The position numbers and the translations under genes were made by a program. A DNA stretch of 64,000 nt from a virus (taxonomy: Duplodnaviria; Heunggongvirae; Uroviricota; Caudoviricetes): the IMG/VR virus record IMGVR_UViG_3300042554_002914, one strand, 5' to 3'. Of the stretch, positions 36,762-41,677 are shown piece by piece (within the stretch, counting starts at the first letter, position 1; every line of letters begins with the position of its first letter). The notes beneath the pieces were generated by a model, which made no database searches, was not told where the DNA came from, and saw nothing but the letters and a program-made list of their open reading frames with translations.

Positions 36762-39700
36762 TCAGGACAAGATGTTGGTGATCATAGCGCCAGAACCGAT
36801 AAGACCAGATGCACCGAGGCCAACCAAGTTAACCACACGTTCGATGGTGATTTCAGCACGCACGACACGGCGTTCGCGAATGTAGTACTCCAATTTGTTA
36901 TCGTAAAGGCTCTTTATCCTCTACATCTTTGTATTTCTACAAAGTTCAGACTATATCTTTGCCTTACATCCTTATGTAAGACATTAGGCGCTCGTGGAGT
37001 TTTCATCTGTTCTAGATTACTAACTCTAGTCGTTGAACGTTCGTTTTCTCCCGAAAACGCTTCGCTGCTGATTGCCATGGTTTGAAGTTCAAACGTTAGG
37101 GTCCCAGCAATTCACCTAATTTCTTTTTATGTCAGACCCCAGTAGTTAAGGACGGACAGCGGGTGTTCCTGTGAGTTGATCATTTTTGTTAGCGTAAAGG
37201 TTATTTATCCTTCACTTCTTTACATTTCTGCAAAGATCAGACTATATCTTCTTCCTGAAATTTCTTATCAATCCGGTAACATGACTATCAGGTAGATTTA
37301 AGTGTCGTGCGAACTTGCGAATTGCTGGTTTACCCAGCTCTACCCAAAGTTCAAACAATTCATCAAACCTAGACCATAACTCTTTTCTCGATCTGGGGTT
37401 ATTTATTCCCCTTACCTTTAGAGACAAGGTTTTCGAGATTTTCAGTTTATGCTCTTCAGTCATTTTTCTACCAGTCCAGGGATGATTTGACTTATCCTTG
37501 AAATGATTTTTATGCCAGTCACTGTTTTTTCTTTTAGCTTCTTCTGAGCTTCCTAATTTGGGGGAAATTAAACTAATCTCCCTTGAACCTAGCCCCCATT
37601 GTTTTGAACTTTTCCAAATTGCCCACCATAATTTTTTATTATGGGGTTGGGATAAACTTAAAAGTAAATGGGCTATGTAGTGTTCTCTCCGGGTCAGCAT
37701 TACTAGGTTTGATACTTCATCATTCCCTCCACAACAAATAGGAATAATGTGATGTTTTTCAAGCCCATTTTTGCTTCCCCTTCGTTTGGGGATTGGCCGA
37801 AGTAAAAGTAAACGTGATGTGATAAGATTCCAATACCACTTTTCCCATTTATTAAGAAAGTGACATTCTATCAGGAGTGGGGCACTCGTGGATGGGTTAT
37901 TATTTTCGGTATTCACCATCTAGTCGTTGAACCTTTTGACTACAACTCTATTATAGCATAGAGTCCGAAATAGTCAACTTGGCTGCTGATTACCATAGCT
38001 TTCAAACTTTCGTTTGAAGCCGTAGGCTTCCCAGCAATTCACCCCATTGATCTGCGGATCAGGCAGATAATTTGACGTTACCGTCAAACCACGCATTCAA
38101 CTCGTTTAAAAGAAACGATGTTATTAACATACGTGTAACTGAAGGCCGGAGTCGCAGCATTAGCACCACCCGCAGGCATGATCGAATCAGAAGGGCCGTT
38201 GGGGCTGTAGAACAGGAGGATGCCATTGGCGGGGAAGACAGGCTGCAAGGAGCCGTCGTTGGCCAAATAACGCCCTTCAGCTACGCGCAGGCCACGCTCA
38301 AGACCGAAGTAGCGAGCGATGACATCTGTGTCGATGCTATTGGCGGAGGTGTACTTGATACGATCAAGGATCGCTTCGTTGGTCAGCAAGAGGTCGAAAA
38401 CCGAAGTTCCAAGAACAGCGGAGTTCGGACGAATGCCGATCTGGTTGGCAACAGCACGCTTCAGGGTCAGGATGTCCTCAATGGGATTAGAGGTTGCACC
38501 AGACCATGCGGCAGGGCCAGTGGCTGTGCCATAAGCGGTGTTGAAGGCGGTCCAGGTTGTAAAACCAAGACCAGTTTGTGAGCCAGGAGTCCCATTGTAG
38601 GGCTCGTATGGATTGTAGCTGCCAGTCACTGAAACAGCTTGAGCAACGGTGTACTCGTAGCTGTTCATTCATTATGTTATCGCGAGGGCTCTTTATCCCT
38701 TGCTTCTGCATGTTTCTATGCAGTTCAGACTATATCATCGTTTTGTAAACAAAACGTCAGGCGCTCGTGTCAGCTTCATTACTGTTCTAGTAGTATGCTG
38801 TTAGTCGTTGAACGTTCCGTCAATCCCTTGACGGCTTCGCTGCTGATTACCATAGCATCAAACTTTCGTTTGAAACCGTAGGTTTCCCAGCAATTCACCC
38901 AATTTTCTAAATGAGATTAATCTCATAGGGCCAATGTGTTTAGCCTAGACATCGCGTTGCGAGTCTCGATGGCGCGTAGCATTTGTTAACTCAGCGGCTC
39001 TTTATCCACTGATTCATTACCTTGTCGTTGGTAATGTTCAGACTATATTATTGCCCCACTATGTACACGATTACTGTACTTTGTAAGACATTGGGCGCTC
39101 GTGTCAGCTTCATTACTGTTCTAGTAGTATGCTGTTAGTCGTTGAACGTTCCGTCAATCCCTTGACGGCTTCGCTGCTGATTGCCCACGCGGGGGTTCCA
39201 GCAATTCACCCAATTTATAGTGGACCTACGCTGCGATCGAAATCGTTCGTAAAAAATAATCCACTTGTGCAGGACCTTCTCCTGCGTTTTCGATTCAATA
39301 ATGTTATCGCAAAGATTTTATTCTATGCTTCTTTACATTTCTGTAAAGTTCAGACTATATCTTCACCCCTGTTTTTCTTTCTTAGCTTAGCCATATGCTC
39401 ACGGGCAATCTGCCTATGGGTTTCAGACTTTTCTTTATCCGCCCAGTACTTTTTGGCGGACTCACTTCTCTTTTCCTTTTCCTCTTCAGTTTGAACCCTT
39501 CCTCTATTAGCTTCGTGAGCTTTTTTAAGTGTTTTTTCGGGCAGGGATTTACCCATCTTGGTTTTACTAAGTCTTTCTCGCATTTGCTTGGACTTAGGTC
39601 TTCCTTTCTCGGCTGCCCCCGGGGCAATACCGAATGAGGTCTTTTGTAGGGAAGTAGCTAAAATAGATGTACGTGGTCGGTAGGTAATGGCGCCTTCTCC

Positions 39701-41530
39701 GCATTTAACTCCCAACATCCTTCTAACTGCATACCAGTGTTTTACTGAGTTAGCACCTTTCGCAAGGAGGACATGGGCTATGAAGTGTTCTCGGATTGTT
39801 AGTTTTACTCTGTTTCCTTTGGAGTTATCCCCACCGTCACACTTAGGTATGATGTGATGGACGTGGTATCCCCTTTCCTTGGAGATTCCTCTATACTTCC
39901 TGGAGGAGCAGAGTTCGTGGTACCATTTTAACCATTTGTTAGGGTGCTGGGCGCTCGTGGATGGGTTATTATTTTCGGTATTCACCATCTAGTCGTTGAA
40001 CCTTTTGACTACAACTCTATTATAGCATAGAGTCCGAAATAGTCAACTTGGCTGCTGATTGCCTTGTGTTTCAGAGAAGTCACTCCTGAAACCGTCAGGG
40101 TTCCCAGCAATTCACCCAGTTTTTCTATCAGTTTTTCAACTGACGGAGGCTATCGATCTAACCTCTTCAGGCAATTCCCAAGCCACTACTTCTTGTTCAA
40201 GAGCGTAGGGCTCAGAGTCGTAACGGCTCTGTACATACGGAATGTTAGTCCCGTAAGCACGGCGGAAGTCGTTAATAGCAAATTGTTCCTTCAATTATGT
40301 TATCGCAGGGGCTCTTTATCCCCCACTTCTCTTTGTTTCCAAAGAGTTCAGACTATATCATCGTTTTGTAAACAAAACGTCAGGCGCTCGTGGAGTTTTC
40401 ATCTGTTCTAGATTACTAACTCTAGTCGTTGAACGTTCCGTCAATCCCTTGACGGCTTCGCTGCTGATTACCATAGCATCAAACTTTCGTTTGAAGCCGT
40501 AGGCTTCCCAGCAATTCACCCAATTTTTCATAACCCCTCACGGAGTTAAGCGGCATATGGAATACCGAAGCGCAGGATACGTCCTGCACGAGTTGGCGTG
40601 TCTACCACCGGTGCTATGAATAATATACAAAACTTAACGTTTTGCTCTGCATGTTTCCATGCAGTTTAGACTATATCATCATCTTTGCCTAAGCAAAGAG
40701 TCGGGCGCTCGTGGAAAGATTATTCTTGGGTCAGTCACTTTCTAGTCGTTGAACCTTCTTACTTCACTCTTATTATAGCAACAAGAGACCCGAAGTAAAC
40801 TTGGCTGCTGATTGCCTCTTTTGCGTAGCAAAAGTAAGGTGTCCCAGCAGTTCACCCGATTATTCGACAGGGGTCACCCCCTGAAGGAACCTCATTGATT
40901 CGCAATGTTGGTAGACGGTAGCATGAAACCTTGCGCGAGGGTGGTGAGACATTTGTTAACGTAGAGGCTCTTTATTCCCTACCTCTCTTTGTTTCCAAAG
41001 AGTTCAGACTATATCATCGTTTTGTAAACAAAACGCCCGGCGCTCGTGGAGTTTTCATCTGTTCTAGATTACTAACTCTAGTCGTTGAACCTTCCTTTTC
41101 TCCCGAAAAGGCTTGGCTGCTGATTACCATAGCTTTCAAACTTTCGTTTGAAGCCGTAGGCTTCCCAGCAATTCACCGGATTTTCTTTGTTAAAAACAAA
41201 GCCACTCCTTTAAATGGGCAATATGTTATCGCAAAGGCTCTTTATCCCTTGCTTCTACATGTTTCCATGTAGGCCAGACTATATCATCATCCTATAACTC
41301 CCATGCTGAGGAGTCAAGGAGCTGGGCGCTCGTGGAGTTTTCATCTGTTCTAGATTACTAACTCTAGTCGTTGAACGTTCCGTCAATCCCTTGACGGCTT
41401 CGCTGCTGATTGCCTCTTTTGCATAGCAAAAGTAAGGTGTCCCAGCAATTCACCCAGTTTTCTGCCATCATTAAAATGACAGGGACCCTAATTAATCCAC
41501 ACCTGCGTAGGTCTGTTGTAGATTCATCAT
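36762..41530 (-). CDS. Major capsid protein, 351 aa, in 10 exons: 41530-41495, 41218-41214, 40949-40898, 40620-40564, 40291-40161, 39295-39259, 38979-38942, 38669-38131, 37180-37149, 36890-36762
   Basis: Exon lengths 36+5+52+57+131+37+38+539+32+129 = 1056 nt = 351 codons plus stop, with no internal stops: MMNLQQTYAGVDPILTTLAQGFMLPSTNIANFIAPVVDTPTRAGRILRFGKEQFAINDFRRAYGTNIPYVQSRYDSEPYALEQEVVAWELPEEVIENAGEGPAQVDLRAIETRNAMSRLMNSYEY...AFSYTYQLTGTPAVRPEYYIRERRVVRAEITIERVVNLVGLGASGLIGSGAMITNILS. VDPILT..A.G, FGKE.F and W....SNPIEDI...K....IGIRPN match capsid proteins of this type. The gene lies downstream of the portal, protease and decoration genes. Confidence 0.9.
36891..37148 (-). mobile_element. 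Group I intron 9 (258 nt)
   Basis: Core elements; P1 UCCU with GGGG; P10 UACU with AGUA; terminal G. Confidence 0.9.
37242..37919 (-). CDS. Intron-encoded HNH homing endonuclease with NUMOD3-like motif
   Basis: EKHHIIPICCGGNDEVSNLVMLTRREHYIAH; HPWTGRKMTEEHKLKISK; stop TAG lies within GAUAUAG. Confidence 0.88.
   Translation of the reverse strand: MVNTENNNPSTSAPLLIECHFLNKWEKWYWNLITSRLLLLRPIPKRRGSKNGLEKHHIIPICCGGNDEVSNLVMLTRREHYIAHLLLSLSQPHNKKLWWAIWKSSKQWGLGSREISLISPKLGSSEEAKRKNSDWHKNHFKDKSNHPWTGRKMTEEHKLKISKTLSLKVRGINNPRSRKELWSRFDELFELWVELGKPAIRKFARHLNLPDSHVTGLIRNFRKKI
37950..37977 (-). promoter_or_regulatory. Sigma70-type promoter inside intron 8 for the HNH gene
   Basis: TTGACT-N16-TATAAT with extended -10 (TGC TATAAT), 30 nt upstream of ATG 37919. 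Confidence 0.7.
38670..38941 (-). mobile_element. Group I intron 7 (272 nt)
   Basis: P1 GGCU with GGCC; P10 CAUU with AAUG; terminal G; splits a Leu codon CT|A. Confidence 0.9.
38980..39258 (-). mobile_element. Group I intron 6 (279 nt)
   Basis: P1 GUGGAU with GUCCAC; P10 GCGUAG with CUACGC; terminal G. Confidence 0.9.
39350..39988 (-). CDS. Intron-encoded HNH homing endonuclease with NUMOD3-like repeats
   Basis: HVHHIIPKCDGGDNSKGNRVKLTIREHFIAH; basic repeats (KSKQMRERLSK, GRVQTEEEKEKRSES); stop lies within the GAUAUAGUCUGA core element. Confidence 0.88.
   Translation of the reverse strand: MVNTENNNPSTSAQHPNKWLKWYHELCSSRKYRGISKERGYHVHHIIPKCDGGDNSKGNRVKLTIREHFIAHVLLAKGANSVKHWYAVRRMLGVKCGEGAITYRPRTSILATSLQKTSFGIAPGAAEKGRPKSKQMRERLSKTKMGKSLPEKTLKKAHEANRGRVQTEEEKEKRSESAKKYWADKEKSETHRQIAREHMAKLRKKNRGEDIV
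40019..40046 (-). promoter_or_regulatory. Sigma70-type promoter inside intron 5 for the HNH gene
   Basis: Identical TTGACT-N16-TATAAT, 30 nt upstream of ATG 39988. Confidence 0.7.
40292..40563 (-). mobile_element. Group I intron 4 (272 nt)
   Basis: Core elements; P1 CGGU with GCCG; UUCC can pair with 3' exon GGAA; terminal G. Confidence 0.9.
40621..40897 (-). mobile_element. Group I intron 3 (277 nt), terminal nucleotide A
   Basis: Core elements present; P1 GAAU with GUUC; P10 AUGAG with exon UUCAU. Confidence 0.85.
40950..41213 (-). mobile_element. Group I intron 2 (264 nt)
   Basis: Same core elements; P1 CCAU with GUGG; terminal G; splits an Ile codon AT|T. Confidence 0.88.
41219..41494 (-). 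mobile_element. Group I intron 1 of capsid gene (276 nt)
   Basis: Core elements GAAUUGCUGGGA, AAUCAGCAGC, GUUCAACGACUAG, GAUAUAGUCU; P1 exon GGAU with GUCC (U.G at the splice site); terminal G. Confidence 0.9.
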
Positions 41531-41651: not shown

Positions 41652-41677
41652 AAAAAAGGAGCCCCTTTCGGAGCCCC
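41652..41677 (-). terminator. Intrinsic terminator between decoration and capsid genes
   Basis: Minus strand GGGGCTCC-GAAA-GGGGCTCC-TTTTTT (stem with G.U pairs). Confidence 0.75.

Follow-up and report, generated by a model that had tools for sequence, protein, structure and literature searches.

Group I introns in phage genes are textbook knowledge, and Staphylococcus phage Twort carries three of them in a single gene, orf142. Among organelles, the fungal mitochondrial cox1 gene is an essential gene with many group I introns, with and without endonuclease open reading frames (ORFs), that are present in some strains and absent from others. The intron-encoded enzymes of cox1 are of the LAGLIDADG or GIY-YIG type and not HNH, and its intron density per coding kilobase is lower than at the locus described here. 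In crAss-like phages of the Zeta group the capsid gene was found in five fragments, with at most 14 introns per genome (PMC7886860). Jug jumbo gut phages have on average 18.5 introns per genome over many genes, with metatranscriptome support for splicing, and their terL gene is in two or three pieces (PMC12880540). The major capsid gene of faustovirus E12 has 13 exons and 12 introns, 5 of them group I; some of the introns contain homing endonuclease ORFs, and the exons go down to 13 nucleotides (nt) (PMC6247863). Here we analysed a stretch of 64,000 nt from a tailed phage (the window), which corresponds to bases 15758-79757 of a 103,308-bp IMG/VR viral contig (record IMGVR_UViG_3300042554_002914; CheckV 37% complete). 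Its major capsid gene is interrupted by nine group I introns. We consider it very probable that these are selfish, endonuclease-driven introns which have accumulated in a single-copy essential gene, making it an intron sink.

The interrupted gene was located on the minus strand at 41530..36762, a pre-mRNA span of 4769 nt, and all features described below are on the same strand. It consists of ten exons of 36, 5, 52, 57, 131, 37, 38, 539, 32 and 129 nt, separated by introns of 276, 264, 277, 272, 865, 279, 272, 950 and 258 nt. The splice map was drawn from three independent lines, namely the rule that the upstream exon ends in U and the intron in G, the pairing of the 5' exon with a guide in the intron, and protein homologues. 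A previous reading of the DNA made without database searches (the sequence-only reading) had described the gene as free of stops once the introns are removed. This was confirmed, as taking out 3713 of the 4769 nt leaves a frame of 1056 nt that encodes 351 amino acids plus the stop codon. The junction-spanning peptide AGVDPILTTLAQG named there is present in the product, and exon 8 is indeed the sole exon that shows up as an ORF. With intron 3 placed at 40897..40621, four junctions split a codon, one fewer than the five counted there. The G+C content is 53.5% in the exons and 41.7% in the introns.

An exhaustive HMMER search with exon 8 gave uninterrupted relatives of 340-345 amino acids (P0003, P0005, P0007) and also fragments that begin or end at the junctions of the window (P0001, P0002, P0004, P0008, P0039). 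Alignment to homologues without introns, which the sequence-only reading had proposed as a check, agreed with the splice map. The product is colinear with the 341-residue homologue P0003, with a gap at none of the nine junctions, and the identity was 69% in an alignment made with an earlier placement of intron 3 (40904..40628). The spliced coding sequence (CDS) is 96.2% identical in nucleotides to an uninterrupted gene on contig L001 (L001:4177-5232), from which its product differs in 2 residues. The earlier placement of intron 3, with a terminal G and a product reading NIILFIAP, was dropped. L001 reads GCGAAT directly followed by TTCATAGC, the U.G pair in the guide helix (P1) and a 5-bp pairing with the next exon (P10) exist only for 40897..40621, and the homologues have (S/G)(N/T/Q)F at that position.

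All nine introns align to positions 1-253 of the Rfam group I model RF00028. Eight of them scored 55.3-97.4 bits (E 1e-12 to 1e-25), above the gathering score of 50, and intron 8 (match 37218-38118) fell just below it (47.2 bits, E 6e-10) because it contains an inserted HNH ORF of 678 nt. No group I introns beyond these nine were detected elsewhere in the whole 103,308-bp contig. The profile search and the P1 pairing agree that these are nine genuine group I introns, and the four core motifs occur nine times on the minus strand with the variants that had been reported (GAACTGCTGG in intron 3 and AATATAGTCT in intron 6). The private guides described earlier were found as well: all nine 5' exons end in a U that is paired with a guide G at the junction, in a P1 of 4-7 bp. 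A P10 had been claimed for most introns, and it is clear in eight of the nine (3-7 bp, immediately 5' of the P1 strand) and weak in intron 1 (only 2-3 bp). Eight introns end in G, whereas the last base of intron 3 is A. In all nine, the reading frame meets a stop 3-47 nt past the 5' splice site, upstream of the catalytic core. Such early stops are usual in bacterial group I introns, which need to be shielded from ribosomes.

Covariation was tested on an alignment of 32 ORF-less introns from 13 sites with a ten-helix structure (P3, P4/P5, P6, P7, a P7.1-like hairpin, P8, P9 and P9.1). Paired cells amounted to 96.1%, compared with 36-45% when the partners were slid, and double changes were seen in 37 of the 56 pairs. 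None of 500 shuffles reached the observed values. No change was seen in P7 (GACUA/UAGUC), the helix with the guanosine site, in any of the 32 introns. This covariation shows that selection acts on the structure of the ribozyme. In the introns of the window and of L002-L042, the P5 extension, P6, P7.1, P8 and P9 were each found in a few discrete versions that are combined differently at different sites, and this mix-and-match pattern suggests frequent recombination between introns.

Segments of 100-180 nt recur within the gene at 90-98% identity. Such segments could mislead short-read assemblers, and the array might thus be a chimera assembled from repeated intron cores, or else the decaying pseudogene of a defective phage. 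The exact nine-intron combination of the window was not seen in a second contig, and the missing terminal G of intron 3 would fit a defect too. We nevertheless regard an artefact or a dead gene as extremely improbable. The exons stand in the right order and frame with no stop, the guide of each intron matches its own flank, and the covariation is that of live ribozymes. Two contigs from different samples (L002 and L003) carry the same 13-intron gene of 5781 nt, related arrays are present in L004, L032 and L042, and exon single-nucleotide polymorphisms (SNPs) co-vary with intron content as they do in real haplotypes.

The identity of the product was determined from exon 8 (38131..38669, 539 nt) and from uninterrupted relatives. 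Pfam family PF03864 (Phage_cap_E, cut-off 22.9) matched exon 8 with 36.6 bits (E 3.6e-9), the L001 protein with 33.7 bits and P0003 with 42.5 bits, and exon 8 also matched the major head protein family phrog_1005 (E 6e-24). An AlphaFold2 model was made from the L001 protein, two residues off the window product, with a predicted local distance difference test score (pLDDT) of 84.2 and a predicted template modelling score (pTM) of 0.83. Its top PDB match in Foldseek was the gpE-like 3bjq (E 2e-22), followed by HK97-fold capsids including those of P23-45, lambda and HK97. The gene adjoins a gp19-like tail tube gene. A single capsid locus was found in G000 and in the relatives G001 (279,339 bp with terminal repeats, 100% complete) and G002 (98% complete). 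The gene is therefore a single-copy HK97-fold major capsid gene of the lambda gpE type, as judged from the Pfam and phrog_1005 matches, the fold of the model and its being the only copy in a complete relative. Both the capsid assignment and the HK97 fold had been anticipated in the sequence-only reading.

The variation of the array was studied in 80 loci from an IMG/VR search with exon 8, using a spliced-alignment script and, on seven loci, confirmation with Rfam. Over these 80 related contigs the number of introns per gene ranged from 0 to 13, at 18 insertion sites in the 1056-nt CDS. Genes of the 79-83% group have 0 or 1 intron, several of them on DNA contigs longer than 50 kb, those of the 91% group 2-6 introns, and those of the 99% group, which includes the window, 9-13 introns. 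Thirteen introns were found in L002 and L003, from two samples, and in L042; L004 has 11 and L032 at least 11. The window is thus not the extreme case, since its relatives reach 13. In the complete relative G001, the sole capsid gene holds 13 of the 16 group I introns detected, and the remaining three split a DNA primase gene. This primase gene (phrog_25243) lies at L081:1879-2955, equal to G001:C1:20378-21454; its three introns were the only introns detected outside the capsid gene, and a Pfam search of the primase neighbours in L081 gave no matches.

The insertion sites are clustered, with 15 of the 18 within the first 356 nt of the CDS (binomial P 2e-5). A 527-nt middle part is free of introns, with no site at CDS 357-882. 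One idea to explain the clustering is hitch-hiking near nuclease-bearing introns. At ten sites both a form of about 270 nt and a form of 760-1020 nt were found, and in the window the two long forms carry HNH ORFs. Site 281, which is occupied by one of these long forms (intron 5) in the window, has ORF-less forms of 273-278 nt in relatives. Besides the shared intron family, a compact group I intron of 215 nt was seen at CDS site 74 (L018:1304-1518 and 12 other loci; Rfam 66 bits). It has none of the shared core motifs, and therefore a second intron lineage has entered the same gene. L015 (about 360-1900) has inserts of 287 nt and 1216 nt near CDS 83-93, with ends unlike those of the other introns.

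The two long introns of the window carry the putative nuclease genes. Intron 5 (39296..40160, 865 nt, site 281) scored 55-56 bits in Rfam plus 32 bits for its 3' part, has a P1 of GAGGU/GCCUC and contains in its P8 loop a putative HNH homing endonuclease ORF of 212 amino acids (39350..39988). Intron 8 (37181..38130, 950 nt, site 895; P1 CACGU/GCGUG, P10 UCAACUC/GAGUUGA) contains one of 225 amino acids (37242..37919). Both matched the homing endonuclease family phrog_655, with E 3e-24 for intron 5 and 3e-26 for intron 8. The two ORFs share 50% identity over residues 1-101, with no difference in the first 13. Each starts just after P7, continues across the P3 3' strand and the P8 5' strand, occupies the loop of P8 and stops within the 3' strand of P7. 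About 30 nt upstream of the start in intron 5, a sigma-70-like promoter was recognised by consensus match only (40019..40046; TTGACT-16-TATAAT with extended TG, 11 of 12 matches), and an identical one precedes the start in intron 8 (37950..37977). The ORF-less intron 3 has a promoter-like TTTACT-16-TATAAT at 40772-40799, where introns 5 and 8 have the HNH promoter, which may be a relic of a lost nuclease gene. With blastn, intron 2 was 72-77% identical over 58-81% of its length to Bacillus and Enterococcus phage sites annotated as I-BasI or HNH endonuclease and DNA polymerase. Judged by sequence, the intron type is that of Bacillus, Enterococcus and Streptococcus phages.

Traces of homing were found in the exons. 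Between the window and L004, two DNA genotypes, 34 of the 40 exon differences lie within 40 nt of the 8 sites at which intron content differs (P 2.4e-9). This clustering is the signature of homing with co-conversion. Intron-less alleles often differ at the bases that pair with the guide (GTCGAT versus GTGGAT at site 36; C for U at site 927), and these changes look like resistance to invasion. They would fit a competitive role, in which the HNH nucleases cut or nick the intron-less capsid genes of co-infecting phages and the many introns, as a competitive advantage through marker exclusion or interference competition, are positively selected and not merely tolerated. An example is the jumbo phage PhiPA3, whose intron endonuclease is reported to interfere with a co-infecting relative (PMC11620839). 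At our locus the HNH genes have their own predicted strong host-type promoters, with 11 of 12 consensus matches, and the most intron-rich lineages form a tight group, 99% identical in exon 8, from several samples. Against such a role, a nuclease is absent from seven of the nine introns, ORF-less forms are known from almost every site, as fits the decay phase of a selfish cycle, and intron-less lineages persist on long DNA contigs such as L054 and L072. A competitive benefit of the introns is plausible and compatible with selfish accumulation, and we hold it as a tentative addition that is rather doubtful at present.

The sequence-only reading had offered two functions for the array, an intron sink in a conserved essential gene and a timing gate sensitive to guanosine triphosphate (GTP) or Mg. 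The population data fit the sink. According to the gate, the array is kept because nine serial splicings delay capsid synthesis or tie it to GTP, Mg2+ or the state of the host. Capsid output must indeed depend on all nine reactions, as the complete relative has no other capsid gene; the 5-nt exon 2 imposes an order on introns 1 and 2, and the ribozymes are under purifying selection. However, such selection is expected for any intron in an essential gene, and alleles for nearly the same protein have anything from 0 to 13 introns, in varying positions. Near-identical capsid alleles have 9, 11 or 13 introns and more distant ones 0 to 6, most sites occur both with and without an HNH gene, and the clustering of exon SNPs where intron content differs points to recent horizontal gain and loss. 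The gate is unsupported because this pattern is that of selfish homing elements and not of a fixed regulatory device, and we consider it very unlikely.

Whether the introns are removed in the cell was assessed by comparing contigs with and without them. L001 (IMG sample 3300012770) matches L004 at 100.000% identity in all exons and in the flanks (2671 nt before the gene and 1213 nt after it; about 5.7 kb altogether), and is without all 11 introns of L004. The same uninterrupted protein was found on short contigs from two further samples of the series to which L001 belongs (3300012772 and 3300012777) and from one SRA run (SRR5839259). A literature search on the samples and the run returned no paper. 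Similarly, L018 (sample 3300012708) equals L025 at 100% identity, minus 3 of 6 introns. Differences in intron content between DNA genotypes always bring flanking SNPs, whereas here 11 differences come with none, and contigs of the L001 type are therefore best read as mRNA. The sample series of L001 is presumably metatranscriptomic. In four such RNA-like contigs the first base lies 20-69 nt before the ATG, shortly after a terminator-like hairpin and T run (41658..41677) that follows the preceding gene. Transcription of the capsid gene probably begins at a start of its own past this hairpin. The last 96 nt of L001 (L001:5742-5837) are an out-of-place repeat of part of exon 8 (99% identity), which probably arose through misassembly at the end of the contig. 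At sites 41, 93, 150, 318 and 356 the introns of the window share 94.6-99.6% identity with those L004 introns which L001 lacks; there is no such support for sites 36 and 927 or for the form that the window has at site 895. Taken together, it is likely from these comparisons that the introns are spliced in vivo.

On this basis the following course of events can be proposed for the selfish introns. The gene would be transcribed as a pre-mRNA of about 4.8 kb, in which each intron would fold the shared P3-P9 core and recognise its own 5' exon by its private guide through P1 and the U.G pair. Each intron would then be released by the two-step, guanosine-initiated reaction, with P10 aligning the next exon, and the in-frame stops would keep ribosomes off the cores. 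The 351-residue capsid protein would be made only from mRNA freed of all nine introns. The HNH genes of introns 5 and 8 would be expressed from their own host-type promoters. During co-infection by related phages, the enzymes would cut or nick intron-less alleles, and repair would copy the intron together with flanking exon sequence, while ORF-less neighbours tens to hundreds of bases away would be carried with it. In the long run, this essential, recombining gene would become an intron sink in its N-terminal third and at its C-terminal end, the load being tolerated because the ribozymes stay efficient.

The 5' part of the array contains two oddities. Exon 1 (41495..41530, 36 nt) starts with ATG ATG and ends in GGAT, giving a P1 of GGAU/GUCC with the ORF-less intron 1 (41219..41494, 276 nt, site 36; Rfam 85.9 bits), of which the first codon is an in-frame TAA. 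It is followed by exon 2 (41214..41218), which has only 5 nt, CCCAT, and by the ORF-less intron 2 (40950..41213, 264 nt, site 41; Rfam 97.4 bits; P1 CCAU/GUGG). The five bases CCCAU thus serve intron 1 as P10 target and intron 2 as P1 substrate. The 5-nt exon stands between two introns in six contigs (the window, L002, L003, L032, L042 and L037), one of which is divergent and has different introns on both sides. L004 and L014 have only one of the two flanking introns.

The second oddity is the end of intron 3 (40621..40897, 277 nt, site 93; Rfam 94.3 bits), which is ORF-less and lacks the usual 3' hairpin. It follows exon 3 (40898..40949, 52 nt, ending in GCGAAT), the boundary of which was set by the uninterrupted L001 and the P1 GAAU/GUUC. 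The junction with the terminal A is fixed by L001, by this P1 and by the 5-bp P10 (UUCAU/AUGAG), and cannot slide. All other introns at site 93 in relatives end in G. The terminal-A variant was found in five contigs (the window, L002, L003, L004 and L032), with two polymorphic positions among them, and is alone in differing at two positions that are otherwise near-invariant (GAACUGC and GUCUAA); the guanosine-binding pair in P7 is unchanged. If L001 is RNA, intron 3 is removed precisely despite having no terminal G, and evolution would here have produced an exception to the rule of the terminal G. Both oddities enter a bolder version of the competitive role, an intron warfare in which co-infecting phages actively exchange arrays with as many as 13 introns, selection favours these arrays as weapons, the 5-nt exon serves two ribozymes in a set order, and the terminal-A intron with its two private core changes is precisely removed in vivo. 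We see this combination as a possibility, and an unlikely one.

The rest of the array is as follows. Exon 4 (40564..40620, 57 nt) ends in TTCGGT and is followed by the ORF-less intron 4 (40292..40563, 272 nt, site 150; Rfam 85.8 bits), for which the P1 (CGGU/GCCG) was picked by eye from the sequence; the pairing script scored other pairings higher. Exon 5 (40161..40291, 131 nt) and exon 6 (39259..39295, 37 nt) flank intron 5. Intron 6 (38980..39258, 279 nt, site 318; Rfam 55.7 bits) is ORF-less and has a P1 of AGUGGAU/GUCCACU and a P10 of CUACGC/GCGUAG. It is separated by exon 7 (38942..38979, 38 nt) from the ORF-less intron 7 (38670..38941, 272 nt, site 356; Rfam 86.7 bits; P1 GGCU/GGCC, P10 AAUG/CAUU), which precedes exon 8. 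After intron 8 come exon 9 (37149..37180, 32 nt), the ORF-less intron 9 (36891..37148, 258 nt, site 927; Rfam 92.7 bits; P1 GUCCU/GGGGU, P10 AGUA/UACU) and exon 10 (36762..36890, 129 nt including the TGA stop).

Several observations weigh against an array of spliced, homing introns. Because of the 5-nt exon, two ribozymes must use the same five bases, and a terminal A normally cripples exon ligation. L018 retains three introns, and if the samples of L001 and L018 are DNA, their contigs represent intron-less alleles and not splicing. An exact-pattern scan for the spliced junctions of the window lineage found none, for junctions 1-2 among metagenome and viral contigs and for junction 8 among viral contigs; the pattern of junction 9 matched only alleles of other lineages without that intron. 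The Pfam HNH family PF01844 gave both intron ORFs scores below its cut-off of 21.4 (17.6 and 16.5 bits), and a sequence search of the PDB with the HNH protein found no solved relative. Finally, the argument that homing sites lie in conserved sequence was not borne out, because the nucleotides at which the introns are inserted are no more conserved than usual (P 0.74). Selfish accumulation with homing still appears to us very probable.

Regarding the phage itself, a cyanobacterial host is supported by a psbA gene (Photo_RC) in the 277-kb relative G002 (C1:272210-273082); no such gene was detected in G001 or on the contig of the window. Among cultured phages the nearest is Synechococcus phage S-CBWM1, in which the capsid gene is uninterrupted and 59% identical. 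Because of this psbA gene and of S-CBWM1, the lineage is most likely one of uncultured freshwater jumbo cyanophages whose genomes measure about 280 kb. A paper on aquatic jumbo 'moraphages' (PMC12619734) was considered as a published description of it and rejected, as these are a different lineage; the word 'intron' occurs in that paper only in the reference list. Full-text searches of the literature turned up neither a description of the lineage nor any phage gene in which group I introns number nine or more. As gene callers see only exon 8, pipelines for capsid-based classification and host linking mis-annotate this abundant lake cyanophage lineage. The 80 natural variants, with 0-13 introns at 18 sites and with or without nuclease, allow direct tests of how sites are colonised and of how ORF-less introns hitch-hike on the nucleases of nearby introns. 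The same set bears on the number of serial splicings that can be tolerated, the smallest workable exon and the need for a terminal G.

Among known systems, the locus can be compared with Twort orf142, where several group I introns of the same general type also sit in one phage gene with short exons between them. Twort has three introns against nine here and 13 in relatives, and has neither a 5-nt exon nor a population catalogue of 18 sites. The DNA polymerase introns of Bacillus phages (Bastille-like and SPO1 group) and Enterococcus phages, of the I-BasI/I-HmuI type, share the ribozyme type by sequence and the HNH ORF inside. Those phages infect Firmicutes and have one intron in a replication gene, whereas here the likely hosts are cyanobacteria and nine introns, most of them ORF-less, are in a structural gene of 1056 nt. 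The crAss-like and Jug phages resemble our lineage in having genomes rich in group I introns, including in capsid and terminase genes, but their introns are spread over many genes with at most about four per gene, in contrast to the 13 of 16 in one 1-kb gene of G001. Faustovirus E12 is a eukaryotic giant virus with mixed intron types that average 1.3 kb over 17 kb, and the present case is a tailed phage with nine compact group I introns of one family. The sequence-only reading had called nine introns in one phage gene exceptional, and the number does exceed all literature cases found (crAss-like, Jug and Twort). With one intron per 117 coding bases, in the gene that a phage must express most heavily, the density is far beyond the published phage cases. 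The kind of element is known; the novelty lies in how densely the introns are packed, in the population catalogue, in the exon of 5 nt and in the intron with a terminal A.

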